Source of the DNA: an uncultured bacterium | Lineage (GTDB): Bacteria; Babelota; Babeliae; Babelales; Vermiphilaceae | Length of the DNA: 64,000 nucleotides | Assembly: GCA_963707655.1 (NCBI GenBank) | Contig: OY970172.1 | Coordinates: forward strand, 704,001 to 768,000 | Direction of reading: 5' to 3' | Part shown: positions 11,281-29,602 of the stretch, in pieces | Layout of the letters: the number at the start of each line of letters is the position of its first letter | Numbering within the stretch: the first letter of the stretch is position 1 | Notes under the pieces: model-generated | The model's database searches: none | Told to the model about the DNA's origin: nothing | The model's input: the letters and a program-made list of their open reading frames with translations, nothing else | Program-made: the position numbers and the translations under genes

Positions 11281-11973
11281 TCATTGTTTTTTAAAGAGAT
11301 GAAATCCGGCAAAGCGAAGAATCAAGGGGGTGCAGGCCAATACGGCCATGGCAACAAAAGCGATGGTTATTTTAAGAGAAAAAACATCTTGTAGCGAATT
11401 GAGATGCTGCAATTGGTGGCCGGCAAAGGAAAAAATTAAAATTCCCGGCATCACGCCCAAAAAGGTTGTCCACGTAAAGGTCCAAAGAGAAACAGTAGTC
11501 AGCCCAGCCAGCAGATTCACGAGAAACAGAGGAACAATGGCAATAAAATGGATCAAAACCAAAAATTGAGTGCCATAATGTGCAACTGCCCGATTAAAAC
11601 TGATTAGCTGAGAGCGATAGTGCTGCTGAATAAAATTACCAATCAGATGACGAACACTCCAAAAAGCAAATGCCGCACCCAGAGTTGAAGCAATAATGCT
11701 CAAAACAGCTCCTAATAACGTACCAAAAAGGAACCCCCCGGCAATCGCAAAGAGAAAGGCAGCCGGCATAGAAATAGCCACTGATGTTGTATAGATTGCA
11801 AAAAAGCTGAACATGGATAGCCAATAGTGGCGCTCAACGTATAATTGCAAATAAGAGCTATGCTTTTTAAGCTGCTCAAAAGTAAAGAGCTGAACAATGC
11901 CTGAAAAATGAAGAAGCACAATGAGTGAGATCAATACTATGCCAAGGAATAAACGCCTTATCACTGTCTTCAT
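11281..11973 (-). CDS. TVP38/TMEM64 (DedA/VTT domain) membrane protein
   Basis: Multi-TM; AGGFLFG, STLGA, PLFLVNLLAG, WTTFLG.MPG. Confidence 0.88.
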   Translation of the reverse strand: MKTVIRRLFLGIVLISLIVLLHFSGIVQLFTFEQLKKHSSYLQLYVERHYWLSMFSFFAIYTTSVAISMPAAFLFAIAGGFLFGTLLGAVLSIIASTLGAAFAFWSVRHLIGNFIQQHYRSQLISFNRAVAHYGTQFLVLIHFIAIVPLFLVNLLAGLTTVSLWTFTWTTFLGVMPGILIFSFAGHQLQHLNSLQDVFSLKITIAFVAMAVLACTPLILRFAGFHLFKKQ

Positions 11974-11988
11974 AACACTTTTCCACTG

Positions 11989-12675
11989 TTAGATATGGTA
12001 ATTTTTTTTCACCCTTTTAATAATCAATGGCACCAAGGCGAGGAGTGCAAATATGAGTAATAAGCCCAAGGTTTGCCATGAAATAAGATCTTGCATTGAA
12101 GTAATGGTGCGCAACCGGCTTCCGGCCACCACATAAATCACCAAAAACGGCAAAGTTCCCAGCGCCGTGGTCCATATCATGGTCCTCAAAGGGAGGTCGG
12201 CCAAAATAGCAACAGCGTTAATCACAAAAAAAGGAACCACGCCCAGAAATTGTAAAACAAGCAGATAGCTTGCTCCCCCTTTTTTCATTTCATGCTCAAA
12301 TTTTGCAAATTTTGTTTTATATCTTGCATGAATCACTTGATAAAAAAAGGAACGGTACACGAGAAAAGAGACAGTGGCGCCCAGCACGGCACCCACTTCA
12401 CTATAGATAATGCCATAGCCTATGCCAAACAAATAGCCGGCAGCAAGGGCAAATAAAGGAACAAGCGGCAACCCAAACAGAAGCGCTGCGACAAAAGATA
12501 CAACATACAGAAGCACACCAAAGAAATAATGATTTGAGACAAACTCTTTAAAGACAGCACTGTGCTCTTTGAGTTGTTCGAGTGAAAAATATTTGGCAAA
12601 ACCGAATTGATAAATCAGAAAAATAATCGCCACGAAAGAAAAAATCAAAATTAATTTTTTTGGAAATCGCTTCAT
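11989..12675 (-). CDS. TVP38/TMEM64 (DedA/VTT domain) membrane protein, tandem paralog
   Basis: AAGYLFG, VPFFVINA, WTTALGTLP; same architecture as neighbour. Confidence 0.88.
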   Translation of the reverse strand: MKRFPKKLILIFSFVAIIFLIYQFGFAKYFSLEQLKEHSAVFKEFVSNHYFFGVLLYVVSFVAALLFGLPLVPLFALAAGYLFGIGYGIIYSEVGAVLGATVSFLVYRSFFYQVIHARYKTKFAKFEHEMKKGGASYLLVLQFLGVVPFFVINAVAILADLPLRTMIWTTALGTLPFLVIYVVAGSRLRTITSMQDLISWQTLGLLLIFALLALVPLIIKRVKKNYHI

Positions 12676-20658: not shown

Positions 20659-21037
20659 CTATGAACACTTTAATCCGATTAAAAGCCCCACAATAAAGCT
20701 AACGCTCAGTGCAGCATTGATCGTAACCCACTCCCACAACATCGAAAATGCATTGCCAGTTAGATGAGTAGCACGTATGCCAAAAAATTCTTCTACTTTA
20801 GCATCATTGATAATTACATGGATAAGTTCACATTTTTGAACAGCACCATGAGCACTAAAAAAATAACAAACGCGCATACATAATTGGCATATCTTTTAGA
20901 AAGAAGCCTGACGCAAATCCTATCCCGGCCGCAATAAAAAGTTCCAAGATTTTATGTTTTGAAAGATCGATCTTGTCAAAAAAATGATTCGCCCTATCAC
21001 CAATTTTATCTAAAAAACTCATTGGCTTTTCTTGCAT
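20659..21037 (-). CDS. FUN14-like small membrane protein, frameshifted in this sequence
   Basis: Two overlapping ORF pieces: GIGFASGFFLK and SFIVGLLIGLK resemble the FUN14 N- and C-terminal TM motifs. Confidence 0.5.
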
Positions 21038-21194: not shown

Positions 21195-21465
21195 CTACTT
21201 AATCATAGTGCGTAATGCTTTACCTGCTCTGAATTTAGGAACTTTCTTTGCAGGGATTTGCATTTTCTTGCCGGTTGCAGGGTTTACACCAACTCTGCTT
21301 TTTCTTTTCATCACAGTAAAGGTACCAAAGCCAGTTAAAACAACATCTTTACTTGATTTTAATGCGTGCTCACTGAGTGAATAAAAGCTTCTAAGCATTC
21401 TTTGCATGTGATTTCGACATCTTGGTCATTTTCGCCATGCTTTCAACTAATTTTGCCTTATTCAT
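21195..21465 (-). CDS. hup: HU DNA-binding protein (two apparent 1-nt deletions near 21410 and 21370)
   Basis: ATG at 21465 gives MNKAKLVESMAKMTKMSKS; frame shifts join it to VVLTGFGTF..MKRKSRVGVNPATGKKMQIPAKKVPKFRAGKAL. Confidence 0.9.
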
Positions 21466-21530
21466 GTATAAAATCCTTTTTTCTGATTCACCTGTTAAAC
21501 AGCAAACAAAAAAAGCTAGTACTAATTGGT

Positions 21531-21559
21531 AAAATAGTAACAGGATATTTTTCTGTCAA
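21531..21559 (-). promoter_or_regulatory. Sigma70-like promoter for hup
   Basis: TTGACA-17 nt-TATTTT on - strand. Confidence 0.55.
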
Positions 21560-21790
21560 GATTTTTGTGTTGCCCTATTGGCGAGTGCAATAAATATGCT
21601 TACACAACAGCATATTTATTTTTATGGGTGAAATGCTCGAATGACAAAATCAATAATGATTCGCAAATTTTTCTTCCCGATATGGACAAGGACAGTGAGG
21701 TTGGGGTAATGTAAGCTTTGTTCGTATATAAAGCCTGCACGGATCTTTCGTTCATTTGATGATGTCCTGTTATGAGAAGGTTATTCTGCC

Positions 21791-22990
21791 ATGAAAAAAT
21801 ATATACTAGTCTTGGGCATGCTTGAAATGTGCTCACTGACATGCATGGATAGTAAATCAGCCCAAAAGACCATTTCTCATTTTTTTGTGATTAACAAAGA
21901 AATGACCCTACCACAATTTGTCTCGTCCAGGTTCCAAGCACAGGGAATCAATGCTGGCTTGCAAAACTTTAAACAAAGACTGACTTGTGTCCCATGTAAT
22001 TACAAGACTGAAAGGGCTTGGGAATACGACGAACACTCAAGAACTAGAAAGCACCAAGCGCTAACAAAAATCGCTACGACAGACCAAGAGCGCCGGATTC
22101 AAGCAGCATGGAATAGACACCAGAAAAAATTCATTTGCGCTTGTAATACAACCTTTCTGAATGTGTTTCAATTTGAAAGGCATCACTGCATTGCACAAGA
22201 AACTTTAGCAAATTTCATGCATTCCGAACAAGACCTGATGTGTGTCCCTTGTAATTATTATGCTAAAAGCGCTTATGAATACAAGACGCACGTCGAAAAA
22301 ACTGTTCGACACCAAGCGCTAATAAAAATCGCCACGACTGATCAAGAGCGCCGAGTCCAAGCAGCGTGGGATAGAGAACGGAAAATATTCATTTGCGCTT
22401 GTAATAAAACTTTTCTGAATGTGTTTCAATTTGAAAATCACCAGTGCATTCCACAAAAAACTCTAGCAAGTTGCATGAATTCCGAACAAAAACTGGCTTG
22501 TGCCCCATGTAATTATGAGACTAAAAACGCTCGGGACTACATCCGACACGTTAACACATCTATGCTACACCAAGCGCTAACAAAAATCGCTACGACCGAC
22601 CAAGAGCGCCGGATTCAAGCAGCATGGAATAGAGAACTGAGAAGATTAATTTGCGCTTGCAATAAAGCTTTTCTGAACGTGTCTCACTTTGAAAGGCATC
22701 ACTGCAGTAAAACTCAATTTTTAGCAAATAACACTGATCAAAGCGATCTAGGTTTCAATGAAGAACTACAAGATGGACAGGATGTTATTAGAGATGTTCA
22801 GAGCGCTATGGATAAGCACTCGATTCAGGAAAATGGCCGGCTAGATAGTTTTTATCCAAGCATCACGTATGATGACCAAATAGATTCAACATCGTATCAA
22901 GATGAACAGGACCTTGCTCTTGGCACTGATGAGGATTTGCGTGAATGGTTGGGAAACATGACCGCATCTTCTCATGAAAAAGATGCCTAA
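21791..22990 (+). CDS. Secreted tandem double-zinc-finger repeat protein 1 (3 modules plus acidic tail)
   Basis: Signal-like N-terminus; 3x [C-x2-C-x12-H-x5/6-H]-QAL.KIATTDQERR.QAAW-[C-x-C-x12-H-x-C]; D/E-rich C-terminus. Confidence 0.88.
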   Translation: MKKYILVLGMLEMCSLTCMDSKSAQKTISHFFVINKEMTLPQFVSSRFQAQGINAGLQNFKQRLTCVPCNYKTERAWEYDEHSRTRKHQALTKIATTDQERRIQAAWNRHQKKFICACNTTFLNVFQFERHHCIAQETLANFMHSEQDLMCVPCNYYAKSAYEYKTHVEKTVRHQALIKIATTDQERRVQAAWDRERKIFICACNKTFLNVFQFENHQCIPQKTLASCMNSEQKLACAPCNYETKNARDYIRHVNTSMLHQALTKIATTDQERRIQAAWNRELRRLICACNKAFLNVSHFERHHCSKTQFLANNTDQSDLGFNEELQDGQDVIRDVQSAMDKHSIQENGRLDSFYPSITYDDQIDSTSYQDEQDLALGTDEDLREWLGNMTASSHEKDA

Positions 22991-25874
22991 CATAGATTGC
23001 TGCATGGACAAGAAGAGCTAGGTTGGGTAATGTAAACTCTGTTTGTACATAAACCCTGCACAGATCATTCATTTTGATAATGTCCTGTTATAAGAAGGTT
23101 ATTCTGCTATGAAAAAATATATACTAGTCTTGGGCATGCTTGAAATTTGCTTACTCACGTGCATGGATAATAAACCCGGCCAAAAGACCGTTTCTGATTT
23201 TTTTGTGATTAAAAAAGAAATGACCTTTCCGCGATTTGTCTCGTCGAGATGCCAGGTGCCAAGAGAACCTGGTGGCTCGCAAAGCTTTGAGCGAAGCCCG
23301 GCTTGCATCACGTGCAATTATAAGGCTAAAAGCGTTCTTGACTACAACCGACACGTCAAAAAAACTACTCTACATCAAGCGCTAACCAGAATCGCTACAA
23401 CAGATCGCGAGCTCCGGATACAAAAAGCGTGGAACAGAGATCAGAGAAGATTCATTTGCGCTTGCAATAAAATTTTTCCGAATGTACTTCACTTTGAAAA
23501 CCATGTCTGCATTTTACAAGAAAATCTGGCAAGCTTCGTGAATTCTGAGCAAAGCCTGACGTGCAGCGCCTGTAATTATAGCAATACGATGGCTTCGGAA
23601 TTCCAAACCCACTGTAACTCTAGACAACACCAAGCGCTAACAAAAATCGCTACGACAGACCAAGAACGCCGAATACAAGCAGCATGGGATAGAGACCAGA
23701 GAAAATTCATTTGCACTTGCGGCAAGGCTTTTTCGAATGTATTTCACTTTGAAACCCATGTCTGCATTTTACAAGAAAATCTGGCAAGCTTCGTGAGTTC
23801 TGAACAAAGCCTGACATGCACCACCTGTAATTATAGCAATACAATGGCTTCGGAATTCCAAACCCACTGCAACACTAGACAACACCAAACGTTAACAAAA
23901 ATGGCTACGACAGACCAAGAGCGCCGGGTCCAAGCGGCATGGGATAGAGGCAAGAGAAGATTCATTTGCGCTTGCAATAAAGTTTTTCCGAATGCGTTTC
24001 GTTTTGAAAATCATCGATGCAATGAATCTCAATTTTTAGCAAACAACACTGATCAAAGCGATCTAGGTTTCAATGAAGAACTACAAGATGAACAGAATGT
24101 TATCGGAGACGCTCAGGGCGCTATGGATGAGCATTTGATTCAGCAAAATGGCTGGCTAGATAGTTTTTATCCAAGCATCACACATTATGAACAAGACCTT
24201 GCTCTTGGCACTGATGCAGCAGTAGCTGCTTTAACCAGTCTTCAAAAAACCTGCGTCATCTGCAATTATACCGCTAAAGATGTCAGGCAATATAAGCAAC
24301 ACTCCCGCAACGCGACACACCAAGCATTAACAAAAATTGCTACGACAGACCAAGAGCGCCGGATTCAAGCAGCGTGGGATAGAGAACAGAGAAAATTCAT
24401 TTGCGCTTGTAATAGAGCTTTTCTGTACGTGCCTCACTTTGAAAGGCATCACTGCAGTAAAATTCGATTTTTAGCAAACAATACTGATCAAAGCGATCTT
24501 CTAGGTTTCAATGAAGAACTGCAAGCTGAACAAGATGTTATTAGAGACGCTCGGGGCGCTATCGATGATCAAATAGATTCAACATCGTATCAAGATGAAC
24601 AGGACCTTGCTCTTGGCACCGATGAGGATTTGCGTGAATGGTTGGGAAACATGACCGCATATTCTCGTGAAAAAGATGCCTAACACCGATCTTTCATTCA
24701 TTTTGATGGTGTCCTGTCATGAGAAGGTTATTCTGCTATGAAAAAATATATACTAGCCTTGAGCGTGCTTGAAGTTTGTTCATTGACATGCATGGACAGT
24801 GGATCCGGCAGAAATGCCATTTCCTCTTATTTTGTTCTTGAAAAAGAGCAAACGCTACGACAGTTTGCCGCACAGCGAGACAAAGATCGAGAAGCGGTAG
24901 CTGCTTTAACTAGTCTTCAAAAAACCTGCGTCACCTGCAATTATACCGCTAAAGATGCTCGGCAATATAGGCCACACTCGCGCAACGCGACACACCAAGC
25001 ATTAACAAAAACCGCTACGACAGACCAAGAGCGCCGGATTCAAGCAGCGTGGAATAGAGAACTGAAAAAGTTCACTTGCTCCTGTGGAGCACTTTTTTCT
25101 GACATGGGCCGCTTTAAAGCCCACCACTGCATTTTGCAAAAAAAGTTCGCAAATTTTATAACTCCTGAACAGCATCTGACGTGCGCCACGTGTAATCATA
25201 GCGACAGATTGCCTGCCAGCTTCCAAAGGCACTTAGAAAGCGCACACCATGAAGCACTGACAAAAATTGCCAGCACAGATCAAGAACACCGAGTTCAAGC
25301 AGCATGGAACAGAGAACAAAAAAAATTCATTTGTTCTTGTGGCAATGTTTTTTCGCGTATAGATTTTTTTCAAGGACATGACTGTATCCAAAATAGTTTT
25401 CTGGATTCTGAACAAGGCTTTGTATGTACCACCTGCAATTATAAAACCACAGAAACTGATTTATTCATAAAACATCGCAAAAACGCTATCCACTTGGCGT
25501 TAACAAAGACCGCTACCACTGACCAAGAACGCCGGGTGCAGGCAGCCTGGAACCGAGCACAGAGAAAATTCATTTGCATTTGTGATAAGTATTTTTATCG
25601 TCTATCCGATTTTGAAAACCATGAATGCATGTTGACAGATAATTTTTCTAACCTTGAAAAAGAGCTTAATTGCGCTCCATGCAATTATAAAGTCGCTGAT
25701 GGCTGGCATTGGGCAAGACACTTAAACAGCGCACAACATCAGGCATTAACAAAGACCGCCATAACTGATCAAGAACGCTGGATTCAAGCCGCATGGAACA
25801 AAGACTCAAAAACGTTCATTTGTTACTGCGATAAAGGTTTTCATGATATAACCCTTTTAAAACGACACCGCTGC
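21986..25874 (+). repeat. 11 coding repeat units of about 245-260 bp across three genes
   Basis: Recurring DNA core like caccaagcgctaacaaaaatcgctacgacagaccaagagcgccggattcaagcagcatggaataga. Confidence 0.92.
23109..24683 (+). CDS. Secreted tandem double-zinc-finger repeat protein 2 (4 modules, two acidic segments)
   Basis: Same N-terminus and module as protein 1; internal partial acidic tail after module 3. Confidence 0.88.
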   Translation: MKKYILVLGMLEICLLTCMDNKPGQKTVSDFFVIKKEMTFPRFVSSRCQVPREPGGSQSFERSPACITCNYKAKSVLDYNRHVKKTTLHQALTRIATTDRELRIQKAWNRDQRRFICACNKIFPNVLHFENHVCILQENLASFVNSEQSLTCSACNYSNTMASEFQTHCNSRQHQALTKIATTDQERRIQAAWDRDQRKFICTCGKAFSNVFHFETHVCILQENLASFVSSEQSLTCTTCNYSNTMASEFQTHCNTRQHQTLTKMATTDQERRVQAAWDRGKRRFICACNKVFPNAFRFENHRCNESQFLANNTDQSDLGFNEELQDEQNVIGDAQGAMDEHLIQQNGWLDSFYPSITHYEQDLALGTDAAVAALTSLQKTCVICNYTAKDVRQYKQHSRNATHQALTKIATTDQERRIQAAWDREQRKFICACNRAFLYVPHFERHHCSKIRFLANNTDQSDLLGFNEELQAEQDVIRDARGAIDDQIDSTSYQDEQDLALGTDEDLREWLGNMTAYSREKDA

Positions 25875-26060
25875 AATAAAAATCCATTTTTAGTACATGA
25901 CGCTGATAAAAACAATCAAGATCTTGACCAAGAAGTGGTAGACAAACAAGATATTTCTCTGCCCGGAGAAGATGATTTAGATGAATGGCTAGATAGAGTA
26001 GAAACATCTCGGGTAAAAAAGATGCTTGAAACTAGATTTAATGCGGTTAGTTCTGATTAA
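24738..26060 (+). CDS. Secreted tandem double-zinc-finger repeat protein 3 (4 modules plus acidic tail)
   Basis: Same module with more diverged fingers; tail DISLPGEDDLDEWLDRV. Confidence 0.88.
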   Translation: MKKYILALSVLEVCSLTCMDSGSGRNAISSYFVLEKEQTLRQFAAQRDKDREAVAALTSLQKTCVTCNYTAKDARQYRPHSRNATHQALTKTATTDQERRIQAAWNRELKKFTCSCGALFSDMGRFKAHHCILQKKFANFITPEQHLTCATCNHSDRLPASFQRHLESAHHEALTKIASTDQEHRVQAAWNREQKKFICSCGNVFSRIDFFQGHDCIQNSFLDSEQGFVCTTCNYKTTETDLFIKHRKNAIHLALTKTATTDQERRVQAAWNRAQRKFICICDKYFYRLSDFENHECMLTDNFSNLEKELNCAPCNYKVADGWHWARHLNSAQHQALTKTAITDQERWIQAAWNKDSKTFICYCDKGFHDITLLKRHRCNKNPFLVHDADKNNQDLDQEVVDKQDISLPGEDDLDEWLDRVETSRVKKMLETRFNAVSSD

Positions 26061-26996: not shown

Positions 26997-27989
26997 TCAA
27001 TGAATGAATTGTAAACATCTGGCGGAGCGCACCCGTTTAAAAAAATCAATCGGGTGTTGTAGCAGATCAAAAATCCACCAATCATATTCACTATCAACTG
27101 AAAAAATCCTAAAAAGAATTCTCCCATGAATCAGCCTGCCATCCAATGGTCCAATAAAACGACAATCTCTACTTCCTTGTCTATTGTCCCCCATCACCCA
27201 ATACTGATTCTTGCCTAATTCAACATAAAATTCATCGGAACAATTCCAGCGGCTCTTGCCTTCACACCGCTCTCTGTCACAAGTCGGATTTCGTGTTAGT
27301 GGCGTTTCGGCCTCCAATAGTATCAAATCCCCTTTTTCGTCTCTAATAAGGCGATTTTCTCTTAACAAATAAAATGGTTGCTTATTGAAAGGCACTGACG
27401 GATCATACGATCGCGGATTCGTATGGTCTGCCATAAATTCTTCAACGGCATTTTTATTGGCGCGTTGCACATCTCCTTGCAACAAGGTCTTGTCTTGTTC
27501 TTGTTTAATCCGCCCGTACAAAGTCTCCGGATCTTCATCAAAGCTCATAGCCAAAGGATATTTGTTTAAATACGGCTCATCTAATTTAAGGCTATTCACA
27601 TAAACTACCGGCTTGCCATCCTCTATAACGCCCTTAACAATATCCCCCGGCACACCAATCACTCGCTTGGTCCAATTGCTTGGCCCCCATACATAATTTT
27701 GGAAAAGAGACATGCCAAAAGAAGAGGAGTAATGAAAAAGCGGATCATTGAATGAGATAATTTCGCCTCGTTGCGGCTTACGAAAAAGATAGGTTGCTTT
27801 ATCGGCAAAAAATCTTTCTCCCACGAGCATTGTTGTTTCCATTGATCCGGTAGGAACTTGATAGAGACCAAAGCCAAAGGTTCTTATTAAAAAAATAACC
27901 GTGACCCACAGCAATATCTCGCGCCAACCCCCATCTCTGCATTGTTTATATAAAGATTTGTTTGATTGCTTCTGTTTTGAATGCGCCAT
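26997..27989 (-). CDS. lepB: Signal peptidase I (paralog A)
   Basis: VPTGSMETT (Ser), TKRVIGVPGD (Lys), MGDNRQGSRDCRFIG. Confidence 0.93.
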   Translation of the reverse strand: MAHSKQKQSNKSLYKQCRDGGWREILLWVTVIFLIRTFGFGLYQVPTGSMETTMLVGERFFADKATYLFRKPQRGEIISFNDPLFHYSSSFGMSLFQNYVWGPSNWTKRVIGVPGDIVKGVIEDGKPVVYVNSLKLDEPYLNKYPLAMSFDEDPETLYGRIKQEQDKTLLQGDVQRANKNAVEEFMADHTNPRSYDPSVPFNKQPFYLLRENRLIRDEKGDLILLEAETPLTRNPTCDRERCEGKSRWNCSDEFYVELGKNQYWVMGDNRQGSRDCRFIGPLDGRLIHGRILFRIFSVDSEYDWWIFDLLQHPIDFFKRVRSARCLQFIH

Positions 27990-28627: not shown

Positions 28628-29602
28628 CTACTTAACAAATTGCAAGCATCTGCTCCAGCGGATACGCTTGAAAAAATCAATCGGATGACGCAAGAGATCA
28701 AAAATAATCCAGGTATGTGCGCTGTCAACAGAGAAAATTCTAAATAACATTTTTCCATGAATGAGTGAGCCGTCGATTGGTCCAAAGAAACGGCAGTCAT
28801 AGCTACCTTCGCGATTGTCTCCCATGCCCCAGTATTGATTTTTACCGAGCTCAACATAAAACTCATCAGTACCGTTCCAATAACTGTTACCTACGCGAAA
28901 TGCTTTGTGGTGCTTCGATTTTTCTAGAGGCGTGCCCGGCCAGCGCAATTCTATTTCACCTGCTTTATTTCTTCTTACTCCGCTTTCTTTAATATTATAA
29001 AACGGTTGGTGATCAAATGGCTTTGAAGGGTCGTACGTTTTCCAGCGAGTGCTGTAGCTTGCTTGTTCTGAAGAAAAACTTTGCAATTCTTCCATACTTA
29101 TTTGACCGCTGAGTACATATTTTAGATTTTCTTTTTCTATCGTTTTGGGATCTATGCCATAGATACCAATGAGAGGATATTGGTTAAGATACGGTTCATT
29201 AAGCTTTTCGCCATTGAGGTAAACCGCTGTTTTGCCATCTTCAATAACTCCCCTGATTGTGTCACCGGGAACAGCAATCAAACGCTTGGTTACGTTGGTT
29301 GGACCCCAGACATAATACTGAAAAAGTTTTTTGACAGGGTTTGAGGAATATTTGAAGGTCACATCATTTAACGAGATAATTTCCCCGCGTCTGGGTGCGC
29401 GAAACCAATAGGTCAGCTTATCAGCAAAAAAACTTTCGCCAATCAGCATGGTTGTTTCTGCCGATCCGGTTGGCACTTGGTACAAGCCAAAACCAAATGT
29501 TCTGACAGCAAAGATAACAACGATCCAAAGAAGCAATTCGCCCCAACTGTTTTTACCAAAATTTTTTTTGTAAAAAGGCGTATTCGATTTTTTTTCCAAC
29601 AT
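28628..29602 (-). CDS. lepB: Signal peptidase I (paralog B)
   Basis: VPTGSAETT, TKRLIAVPGD, MGDNREGSYDCRFFG. Confidence 0.93.
   Translation of the reverse strand: MLEKKSNTPFYKKNFGKNSWGELLLWIVVIFAVRTFGFGLYQVPTGSAETTMLIGESFFADKLTYWFRAPRRGEIISLNDVTFKYSSNPVKKLFQYYVWGPTNVTKRLIAVPGDTIRGVIEDGKTAVYLNGEKLNEPYLNQYPLIGIYGIDPKTIEKENLKYVLSGQISMEELQSFSSEQASYSTRWKTYDPSKPFDHQPFYNIKESGVRRNKAGEIELRWPGTPLEKSKHHKAFRVGNSYWNGTDEFYVELGKNQYWGMGDNREGSYDCRFFGPIDGSLIHGKMLFRIFSVDSAHTWIIFDLLRHPIDFFKRIRWSRCLQFVK

Follow-up and report, generated by a model that had tools for sequence, protein, structure and literature searches.

Tandem cluster and its genomic site

The 64,000-nucleotide stretch of DNA analysed here (the window) holds three tandem neighbouring genes, all on the forward strand, which encode the proteins P1, P2 and P3 and lie as an inserted cluster between an HU gene and a tRNA-Leu gene:

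21195..21407, reverse strand, HU gene (C-terminal part in frame), left edge of the inserted cluster
21671..21790, forward strand, conserved 5' leader of P1 with the ribosome-binding site AGAAGG
21791-22990, forward strand, P1 gene, 399 aa, with signal peptide, three finger modules and an acidic tail of 94 aa
23109-24683, forward strand, P2 gene, 524 aa, mosaic, 4 modules
24021..24227, forward strand, P2 inner acidic-tail copy, residues 305-373, net -14
24228..24455, forward strand, P2 module 4, residues 374-449, in a stretch 69% identical to P3 residues 52-139
24738-26060, forward strand, P3 gene, 440 aa, with signal peptide, four modules and an acidic tail of 61 aa
26209..26296, reverse strand, tRNA-Leu(taa), right edge of the inserted cluster

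Leaders similar to that of P1 precede P2 (about 110 nt, 22991-23108) and P3 (about 54 nt, 24684-24737). P2 begins like P1 (signal peptide, three modules and a truncated inner tail), continues with a P3-like module 4 and ends in a tail that is again P1-like; the inner tail copy ends just before the motif described below and then meets the P3-like segment, with acidity kept and the motif lost. The cluster was not present at the intact syntenic HU/tRNA-Leu site of a same-genus genome (G001), where about 160 bp lie between the tRNA-Leu and HU genes. Frameshifts were observed in genes near the cluster (two in HU, one in a small membrane protein), and one metagenome contig carries a stop at codon 521 of P2, which shortens the protein by its last 4 residues.

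P1-P3 belong to a family of 12 members with a signal peptide in a 1.09-Mb Dependentiae/Babeliales genome, whose nearest named SufB relatives are from Candidatus Babeliales (78%) and Candidatus Dependentiae (74%, 71%). Reading frames were intact in all 12. Six family proteins form a second tandem cluster (cluster 2), in which a motif-like stretch is N-terminal and adjoins a KKRK patch that follows the acidic region and fits K[KR].[KR]. Homologues of P1-P3 outside their own genome were not found in the databases searched, and the family was found neither in G001 nor in the 260 other genomes of the phylum searched. Confined to one genome, missing at the G001 site and with a mosaic P2, the family is, by sequence comparison, accessory and fast-moving.

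Zinc-finger modules

The finger arrays are strongly basic and are placed as follows:

21962..22705, forward strand, P1 finger array, residues 58-305, net +14, pI 9.2
23280..24020, forward strand, P2 finger modules 1-3, residues 58-304, net +12
24903..25874, forward strand, P3 finger array, residues 56-379, net +13

The repeating unit is a module of about 85 residues with two fingers, present in three copies in P1 and four each in P2 and P3, giving 6-8 fingers and 6-8 Cys/His sites per protein. The finger array named in a preliminary description of this DNA was borne out by Pfam C2H2 families scoring above cut-off, namely zf-C2H2_REST in P1 (33.3, cut-off 27), zf-C2H2_2 in P2 (36.6) and P3 (31.5, cut-off 26.9) and zf-C2H2_jaz in P2 (23.9, cut-off 22.6), and by an AlphaFold2 model of the module as a beta-beta-alpha finger pair (pLDDT 86.7, pTM 0.70). 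PF00096 was not listed for P1-P3 in the Pfam search, even at E up to 1. Finger 1 has the U1/matrin/JAZ-type spacing C-x2-C-x12-H-x5/6-H and a long helix. Finger 2 has the form C-x-C ... H-x-C and can be aligned with C2H2 fingers of the classical kind, best with PRDM9 (E 6.7e-4). A conserved helix segment of about 25 residues lies between the fingers, and TGEKP-type linkers were not found between the fingers of P1-P3.

Comparison of the 11 modules gave the lowest dN/dS, 0.08, for the helix between the fingers and the highest, 0.84, for the canonical recognition positions, with 0.34 for the remaining columns; these ratios are rough because dS among modules is saturated (about 1.0-1.3). Variation is greatest at the recognition positions, with which classical fingers read bases, and the inter-finger helix is the most constrained element; purifying selection is strong on this helix and on the metal ligands. 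Judged from sequence and modelling, the genes are real and constrained, and the fingers are real.

Basic linker patches had also been described (RHQKK, RDQRR, RGKRR, RELRR). These exist but are not free linkers; they are a conserved R-x-x-[KR]-[KR] stretch leading into finger 2, observed in 9 of the 11 modules (the exceptions are RERKI in P1 module 2 and KDSKT in P3 module 4). Their reading as nuclear localisation signals was not supported: the patches belong to the structure of the module and do not match the strict nuclear-import pattern K-[KR]-x-[KR]. A scan with this pattern gave no match in P1 or P2 and one in P3 (KRHR), inside a finger helix.

The likeness of finger 1 to U1/matrin/JAZ-type fingers covers the spacing, the long helix and the wide separation of the fingers, and families of this group (zf-C2H2_jaz PF12171, zf-met PF12874, zf-C2H2_2 PF12756) scored above the Pfam cut-off in P2, P3 and cluster 2. 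Weak fold or profile matches include JAZ (2mkn), TUT1 (9j8p), SF3A2 (6qx9_A2) and ZNF622 (6lqm), with Z of 2.6-3.0 and, for ZNF622, an E of 0.84. Proteins of this type differ from P1-P3 in being eukaryotic and intracellular, RNA-binding or of the ribosome/spliceosome, and without signal peptides, and they have no counterpart of finger 2 or of the conserved inter-finger helix. Because finger 1 is U1/JAZ-like, we lean towards an array that binds RNA or structured nucleic acid rather than DNA; matches to the module fold are weak (Foldseek E at least 1, VIA Z at most 3.4), and the preference is therefore a lean and not a result.

Acidic tails and their motif

Counted from the last finger cysteine to the C-terminus, the tails and the motif within each are:

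22706..22987, forward strand, P1 acidic tail, 94 aa, D+E 22, K+R 6, net -16
22922..22960, forward strand, P1 motif (acidic-hydrophobic helix), residues 378-390
24456..24680, forward strand, P2 acidic tail, 75 aa, D+E 19, K+R 7, net -12
24615..24653, forward strand, P2 motif, residues 503-515
25875..26057, forward strand, P3 acidic tail, 61 aa, D+E 16, K+R 8, net -8
25962..26000, forward strand, P3 motif, residues 409-421

The preliminary description had placed an acidic tail with an acidic-hydrophobic motif on all three proteins; the tails were confirmed, with a D+E share of 23-26% against 12-13% in the whole proteins, and the quoted motif was recovered letter for letter. By net charge of the last 40 residues, the proteins rank 7th, 13th and 59th most acidic among 971 predicted proteins of at least 100 aa. 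Two further details had to be corrected. The tails, described as Q-rich, show no glutamine enrichment (9/94, 6/75 and 3/61, against 19/248 in the P1 finger array), and the P3 tail, described as otherwise dissimilar, is homologous to those of P1 and P2: its first 27 residues or so align with them (common F-L, D, L, E, Q-D), the middle 43 or so are missing, and a 19-residue extension is added. AlphaFold2 gave the P1 tail a pLDDT below 50 except for a helix at residues 380-394 (10-residue block mean 69), and the tail is predicted to be disordered with one amphipathic helix on the motif. Array and tail charges were +14 and -16 in P1, +12 and +7 against -14 and -12 in P2, and +13 and -8 in P3.

For both Leu residues of the motif, P3 uses a synonymous codon other than the one in P1 and P2. 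The strict pattern [DE][DE]L.[DE]W[LIVMF] matched P1-P3 only, among 3251 genome ORFs of at least 60 aa. A relaxed pattern, [DE][DE]L.[DEQ]W[LIVMFA], composed after both clusters had been seen, matched 9 of 1117 proteins, 8 of them family members, compared with a mean of 0.17 matches in residue shuffles; its position is C-terminal in cluster 1 and N-terminal in five of the six cluster-2 proteins. These are effectively two or three independent occurrences, because the paralogues are not independent, and a BLASTP alignment of the motif regions of the two clusters was not significant (E 1.9). As the motif is position-independent, a portable docking motif fits better than a C-terminal sorting signal.

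A composition rule for acidic activation domains was taken from an excerpt of PMC10550315, its relaxed form being a charge of -13 to -8 and W+F+L of at least 6 in a 39-aa tile. All three tails passed the relaxed rule and P1 also the strict one, as did the N-terminal acidic regions of cluster 2 in four (relaxed) and three (strict) of six cases. The suggested likeness to activation domains stood to the extent that the tails pass and a helix is predicted, but 111 of 1117 proteins of this bacterium also pass the relaxed rule as excerpted, and 27 of 1117 the strict one. The tails resemble the acidic activation domains of p53 (TAD2) and VP16 in being negatively charged overall, with Leu and Trp scattered through the sequence, in being disordered apart from one amphipathic helix, and in not depending on a fixed place in the protein. 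This likeness is compositional only, and the rule has a pass rate of 10% in this bacterial proteome.

Export

Signal peptides were called from inspection and hydropathy alone:

21791..21844, forward strand, P1 signal-peptide-like N-terminus, residues 1-18
23109-23162, forward strand, P2 signal-peptide-like N-terminus
24738-24791, forward strand, P3 signal-peptide-like N-terminus

The export signal noted earlier was upheld, with a Sec-type n/h/c layout at the N-terminus of all 12 family members; a lipobox was not found in the N-termini of P1-P3. The genome encodes two secretins, the secretin type being the only outer-membrane export route detected, and a genome search returned no FHIPEP (T3SS), VirB4 (T4SS) or TolC-type OEP. 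With no T3SS or T4SS marker detected, there is no known route into the host cytosol and nucleus, and no passage to the host cytosol from the bacterial periplasm or the surrounding medium is known for this phylum. DsbA and DsbB were searched for and not found in the genome; the finger cysteines therefore need not be oxidised in transit.

Comparison with known systems

TAL effectors of Xanthomonas leave the cell by type III secretion, are built of TAL repeats of 34 residues and carry proven signals for nuclear import. P1-P3 resemble them in being bacterial proteins with a signal for export, in their array of modular repeats, which suits the binding of nucleic acid, in the acidic C-terminal region and in forming a variable, recombining gene family. 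They differ in the Sec signal peptide, the zinc-finger modules, the lack of a detected T3SS marker and an activation function that is only putative, and P1 and P2 also in having no match to the strict nuclear-import pattern.

MoHTR2 of Magnaporthe oryzae, a protein of 110 aa, combines a signal peptide with a single C2H2 domain (excerpt of PMC12488382). As presented in excerpts of PMC12488382 and PMC10189765, MoHTR1, MoHTR2 and MoHTR3 share with P1-P3 a signal peptide, a C2H2 finger and lineage restriction, and are secreted by an intracellularly growing parasite and act on host genes; they differ in coming from a eukaryotic pathogen, in being small with a single finger domain, and in their reported suppression of host genes. 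P1-P3 have 6-8 fingers and an acidic tail, and a sequence relation to the MoHTR proteins was not found. Within the phylum, the isolate Chromulinavorax destructans carries signal peptides on 44% of its genes and on 78% of its ankyrin-repeat candidate effectors (excerpt of PMC6561590). These ankyrin proteins, as characterised there, are like P1-P3 in joining a Sec signal to a repeat domain of eukaryote type, in their large lineage-specific expansion and in presumed host manipulation, the repeats of P1-P3 being zinc fingers and not ankyrin. No paper linking Dependentiae to zinc-finger effectors was found in the literature searched.

Possible roles of P1-P3

We tentatively favour, with slightly less than even confidence, a joint reading: P1-P3 are most likely host-directed effectors in a Dependentiae (Babeliales) parasite of protists, three tandem paralogues that recombine and that belong to a lineage-restricted, exported family of poly-zinc-finger proteins, and their motif helix would serve as a short motif for docking on a host protein. 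The unfolded chain would pass Sec via the N-terminal signal peptide, whose layout is seen in the sequences, and would be released through one of the two secretin-type channels. The basic array (net +12 to +14) would bind host nucleic acid with modules in which the inter-finger helix is most constrained and the finger helix surfaces vary freely between modules. The predicted amphipathic helix D/E-D-L-x-E-W-L of the disordered tail would then dock on a host protein, the same physical job as that of an acidic activation domain, and the tail would also offset the charge of the array.

The architecture of a host-directed transcription factor, as first proposed, is partly supported. In its full form, with nuclear entry, sequence-specific DNA reading and a true activation domain, P1-P3 would be a zinc-finger analogue of TAL effectors, which we consider unlikely. 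The proposal draws on the composition-rule passes in both clusters, the predicted motif helix within a disordered tail, the KKRK patch after the cluster-2 acidic region, the variable base-reading positions, the alignment of finger 2 to PRDM9 and the precedent of secreted fungal C2H2 nuclear effectors such as MoHTR2 (excerpt of PMC12488382). It is opposed by the background pass rates, the strict nuclear-import pattern matching P1-P3 only inside a P3 finger, the RNA-binding U1/JAZ-type spacing and Pfam neighbours of finger 1 with PF00096 unlisted, the conserved helix in place of TGEKP-type linkers, and the T3SS/T4SS markers that were not found. A tail that recruits no host factor, and instead folds back as an internal regulator to mask the basic array, seems less likely still. 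The acidic tail of HMGB1 folds back and masks in this way, tail and array charges nearly cancel, and the P2 inner tail copy is still acidic with the motif gone; but the motif is retained where the remaining tail diverges or is deleted, a motif-like stretch occurs at the opposite protein end in cluster 2, and simple charge masking would not need a fixed Leu/Trp/Leu pattern.

Use by the bacterium itself, in the periplasm or at the cell surface, to buffer or store zinc or to form a structural chain of mini-domains stabilised by zinc, appears improbable. A Sec signal alone indicates placement in the envelope only, and the 6-8 Cys/His sites would suit such a role, but the fold, in which two beta-beta-alpha fingers are paired, an exposed helix is strongly conserved and the surface is basic, does not favour it, this reading leaves the acidic docking-type motif without an evident role, and the absence of the family from the same-genus genome and the 260 others searched argues against a housekeeping envelope function. 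Least probable, in our view, is a recent, selectively neutral expansion heading for decay, in which the tail has no function. Restriction to one genome, the frameshifted neighbours and the P2 stop codon in one contig point that way, but all 12 frames are intact, the inter-finger helix and metal ligands are under strong purifying selection, and each gene keeps its conserved leader and ribosome-binding site.

Architecture of the zinc-finger cluster

Three zinc-finger genes were observed head to tail on the forward strand (P1, P2 and P3, together cluster 1), each encoding a protein built from a two-finger module with a period of about 85 aa.

Zinc-finger genes of cluster 1 (window coordinates)
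21791-22990, +, P1, ORF of 399 aa, 3 modules
23109-24683, +, P2, ORF of 524 aa, 4 modules
24738-26060, +, P3, ORF of 440 aa, 4 modules

The module order was finger 1 (C-x2-C-x12-H-x5/6-H), a conserved helix segment, and finger 2 (C-x-C-x12-H-x-C). The second spacing of finger 1 was H-x5-H in 8 of the 11 modules and x6 in 3, while the finger 2 ligands were found in all 11. About 27 residues separated the two fingers, including the strongly conserved helix segment, in which L, T-D, E, Q and W did not vary. An alignment of 12 rows (the 11 window modules and one from a single-module paralogue) had invariant columns C9, C12, H25, H31, L34, T40, D41, E43, Q47, W50, C59, C61 and C76, with H74 nearly invariant. 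The AlphaFold2 model from this alignment consisted of two beta-beta-alpha units with helices bridging them (pLDDT 86.7, pTM 0.70).

A conserved leader and an AGAAGG ribosome-binding site preceded each of the three genes; a promoter and terminator scan returned fewer sites than in shuffled sequence. P2 was a mosaic, P1-like up to a copy of the tail truncated just before the acidic-hydrophobic motif described below, followed by a module 69% identical to P3 residues 52-139 and by a terminal tail whose last 40 residues were 93% identical to the last 40 of P1.

Finger type

Classical Krueppel-type arrays join tandem fingers by TGEKP-type linkers of about 7 residues, and classical C2H2 metal ligands follow C-x2-4-C-x12-H-x3-5-H. 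No short TGEKP-type linkers were found between the fingers of P1-P3, and zf-C2H2 (PF00096) was not listed for them in Pfam at E up to 1. By these tests the array is therefore not of the classical DNA-reading type. The prokaryotic ROS_MUCR finger and the TAL family were likewise absent from the Pfam matches at E up to 1, the repeats being zinc-finger modules. Families that did match included zf-C2H2_REST in P1 (33.3, cut-off 27) and zf-C2H2_2 (PF12756, cut-off 26.9) in P2 (36.6) and P3 (31.5), with P1 not listed. For zf-C2H2_jaz (PF12171, cut-off 22.6) the scores were 23.9 in P2, 19.5 in P1 and 10.6 in P3.

A PDB profile search aligned finger 2, whose cysteine knuckle is shorter by one residue, to classical fingers (best E 6.7e-4, PRDM9), and finger 1 plus the helix aligned weakly with CTCF, BCL11A and ZNF622/REI1. 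Foldseek with the module found nothing at E <= 0.001 and gave rows only at E >= 1, and a VIA-wide fold search gave only weak rows (Z <= 3.4). Among the weak rows, classical arrays stood beside RNA-binding fingers of the U1/matrin type (JAZ 2mkn, TUT1 9j8p, SF3A2, U11-48K, Mod5), and JAZ (Z 2.8), TUT1 (Z 2.9) and SF3A2 (6qx9_A2, Z 2.6) were tied with the classical arrays. The best rows in the ESM Atlas were small zf-met/jaz proteins, mostly from Nucleocytoviricota, which at a score of 0.89 and with recognition below the mark serve as a lead only. Finger 1 leans towards the RNA-binding U1/JAZ type, and the nucleic-acid target may be RNA or DNA.

Acidic tails and the C-terminal motif

The preliminary description had all three proteins ending in acidic tails with an acidic-hydrophobic motif (D/E-D-L-x-E-W-L), and this was borne out: the quoted motifs were found exactly, and the tails, with lengths of 94 (P1), 75 (P2) and 61 (P3) residues after the last finger, contained 22, 19 and 16 acidic residues for net charges of -16, -12 and -8. 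By acidity of the last 40 residues, P1 ranked 7th, P2 13th and P3 59th among the 971 predicted proteins of at least 100 aa. Other details of that description need correction. The P3 tail, held to be dissimilar apart from the motif, also aligned with P1 and P2 over its first ~27 residues, and differed from them by a deletion of ~43 residues and an extension of 19. Glutamine, said to enrich the tails, was no more frequent there than in the arrays. The basic patches ascribed to linkers are an R-x-x-[KR]-[KR] run ahead of finger 2 in 9 of the 11 modules, which in the profile alignment falls at the K-P-Y/F lead-in of classical fingers. As for a nuclear localization signal (NLS), regular expressions for K[KR].[KR], for runs of at least four basic residues and for bipartite signals had no match in P1 or P2; the sole match in P3, KRHR, lay within a finger helix.

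Genome-wide, the strict motif was found only in the P1-P3 ORFs, and a general C-terminal sorting signal was rejected on that ground. Its two Leu codons differed synonymously between P1/P2 and P3. A relaxed pattern, [DE][DE]L.[DEQ]W[LIVMFA], devised after both zinc-finger clusters of this genome had been seen, matched 9 of 1117 predicted proteins (mean of 0.17 in residue shuffles): P1-P3 at the C-terminus, five cluster 2 proteins at the N-terminus and one GspF/PilC membrane protein, the matching paralogues not being independent. BLASTP between the motif regions of the two clusters was not significant (E 1.9). When AlphaFold2 was run on the last module plus tail, the tail stayed below a pLDDT of 50 outside a single helix, P1 380-394, that spans the motif (mean pLDDT of 69 in a 10-residue block). 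In a comparison by eye with known short eukaryotic motifs, none of LIR, clathrin box, dileucine, W-acidic and NES fitted all three tails.

A wider family in the same genome

All ORFs of the genome were scanned with a regular expression and the matches read. Of the 15 matching ORFs, 12 encode finger proteins with signal peptides; two of the others are antisense and the third encodes an unrelated protein. Outside P1-P3, the family comprised six genes in cluster 2 and three singletons (G000 denotes this genome).

Family members outside cluster 1
G000:C1:358647-364929, cluster 2, six tandem genes for signal-peptide proteins, 4-7 C2H2 fingers each (U1/JAZ-like), period of 40 residues
G000:C1:301484-301966, singleton zinc-finger protein with signal peptide, 160 aa
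G000:C1:350158-351042, singleton zinc-finger protein with signal peptide, 294 aa
G000:C1:369000-369614, singleton zinc-finger protein with signal peptide, 204 aa

The singleton at 301484-301966 contained one complete module of the cluster 1 type. P3 matched a cluster 2 protein by BLASTP (E 2e-5), with one cluster 1 module corresponding to two cluster 2 units. Parts of the cluster 2 proteins were ordered as signal peptide, acidic-hydrophobic region, basic KKRK patch and fingers; the N-terminal acidic-hydrophobic region was observed in each protein and the patch in most. Pfam scores were higher than those of P1-P3, and a cluster 2 protein exceeded the cut-offs of zf-C2H2_2 (51.2), zf-C2H2_jaz (34.8) and zf-met (PF12874, 27.7), with PF00096 at 20.8 bits, under its cut-off of 25.2.

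Distribution and insertion site

No homologue outside this genome was found for P3 among 5.8 billion proteins or in a genome contig collection, nor for a cluster 2 protein among the same 5.8 billion. A phmmer search with P1 of 1.84 billion cluster representatives returned P3 and a fragment of 142 aa that matches P1 258-399 exactly, and nothing else. P1 had no homologue among 40 relatives, where a single spurious match (in relative G016) contained 6 internal stops. The module profile found no outside homologue among proteins of 46-151 aa and none in viral contigs; among 261 genomes of the phylum (this one included; 189 of high quality) it matched this genome alone. For a cluster 2 protein no homologue was located in viral contigs, one tblastn relative being reported without a locus. 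About 1% of the 1.09-Mb genome is given to a family for which the protein and genome collections searched yielded no relatives. The sequencing runs listed for the locus included no RNA run. Short contigs from four metagenome runs (soil, wetland and peat) matched parts of the locus, most with an identity of at least 99%; none spanned the locus, and none reached the P1 or the P3 motif.

The syntenic contig of a same-genus genome (G001) contained PilB, MshEN, a small membrane protein, HU, tRNA-Leu, tRNA-Cys, rhodanese and LepB. The gap between HU and tRNA-Leu measures about 160 bp there and ~4.8 kb here, where it contains the 4.3-kb cluster. Since synteny is intact in G001, absence of the cluster from that genome is real, and the comparison therefore identifies the cluster as an accessory insertion adjoining a tRNA gene.

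Genes to the left of the cluster
21195-21560, -, HU (Bac_DNA_binding)
20659-21037, -, small membrane protein, read as overlapping ORFs of 72 and 60 aa
18922-20639, -, PilB/GspE-type ATPase, two ORFs with a 4-nt overlap

HU reads in three frames against an intact 112-codon ORF in G001, implying two frameshifts, so that it is either a pseudogene or affected by assembly indel errors. The small membrane protein, a single 125-aa ORF in G001, is split by another frameshift in this neighbourhood. The ATPase comprises an MshEN domain of 178 aa and a T2SSE domain of 394 aa with a GTG start, and its split is probably genuine because G001 shows the same one. Just downstream of the cluster, a NUDIX gene lies between two paralogues encoding signal peptidase I (S26; 26997-27989 and 28628-29602, -).

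Probable export and the host

The N-termini of P1-P3 began with MKK and a hydrophobic stretch of 13-14 residues (10-residue hydropathy mean of 2.25-2.5), then L-T-C before a Met. Sec (SPase I) signal peptides combine a basic n-region, a hydrophobic h-region and small residues at -1/-3. Judged by inspection, the N-termini of P1-P3 have the layout of a putative Sec signal peptide without a lipobox; a crude hydropathy count gave signal-peptide-like N-termini for 405 of the 1117 proteins of this genome. A lipoprotein reading was rejected, as the residues ahead of the Cys misfit the lipobox, a canonical example of which is present in the neighbouring rhodanese. The closest named SufB relatives were from Candidatus Babeliales (78%) and Candidatus Dependentiae (74% and 71%). 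The genome, one contig of 41% GC and 88.6% complete by marker count, contained two secretins; FHIPEP (PF00771, type III secretion, T3SS), VirB4, TolC-type OEP, DsbA and DsbB were not found in it. TAL effectors have a T3SS, TAL repeats and an NLS, whereas this genome gave no T3SS marker, P1-P3 no TAL repeats, and P1 and P2 no NLS by regular expression.

Intracellular bacteria export eukaryote-like repeat proteins, such as those with ankyrin, F-box or TAL repeats. To our knowledge, almost nothing has been established about host manipulation by Dependentiae. In the literature searched, secreted C2H2 effectors appeared in fungi only (MoHTR1-3), with no exported multi-C2H2-finger effector from a bacterium. 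A study of the Dependentiae isolate C. destructans reports signal peptides on 44% of genes and on 78% of its ankyrin-repeat candidate effectors (PMC6561590).

Function of the tails

The tails had been likened to eukaryotic activation domains. Two composition rules for acidic activation domains (Eq. 3, relaxed, and Eq. 1, strict), from PMC10550315, were applied to 39-aa tiles. All three tails and 4 of the 6 cluster 2 acidic regions satisfied the relaxed rule, whose background in the proteome was 111 of 1117 proteins. The strict rule was satisfied by P1 alone among the tails and by 3 of the 6 regions, with a background of 27 of 1117. The likeness is real in composition yet unspecific.

In our reading the tail is a disordered, acidic stretch bearing a single predicted docking helix, carried on a putative nucleic-acid-binding protein, and P1-P3 are probably exported and host-directed. 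A true activation domain would be one form of such a docking region, and an unlikely one. Less likely still, the tail may be an internal charge mask, a rival on which the opposite net charge of the finger arrays (+12 to +14) bears, and a complex prediction between the module and the last 50 tail residues (score 0.01, mark 0.32) spoke neither for nor against binding. An envelope role is a second rival, also unlikely, and neutral decay of P1-P3 a third and very unlikely one. A wetland-metagenome contig (run X2, depth 3.4) carries G>T at window 24669, a stop at P2 codon 521 by which the protein loses its last 4 residues but keeps the motif. Across the 11 modules, dN/dS was 0.08 in the inter-finger helix, 0.34 in other columns and 0.84 at positions -1, +2, +3 and +6 of both finger helices (chosen beforehand), ratios that are rough because dS was saturated at about 1.0-1.3.

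The most far-reaching form of host-directed export would make the family the parasite's own zinc-finger counterpart of TAL effectors. Twelve Sec-exported proteins would bear an acidic Leu/Trp activation motif that is portable, at the C-terminus in cluster 1 and, beside a KKRK import signal, at the N-terminus in cluster 2. They would enter the protist nucleus and activate chosen host genes, the variable finger helices setting specificity; we consider this improbable. If P1-P3 do reach the host, they would be effectors of a new, nucleic-acid-directed class in Dependentiae and a natural case of modular zinc fingers working across kingdoms. For the question of how Dependentiae become suited to given protist hosts, the family expansion is a clear lead.

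Other features of the window

The segment 44001-46000 had a GC content of 0.51, compared with about 0.41 elsewhere, and contained no Rfam family at gathering score. A tandem pair of VTT/DedA-domain membrane proteins was observed at 11281-11973 and 11989-12675 (-).
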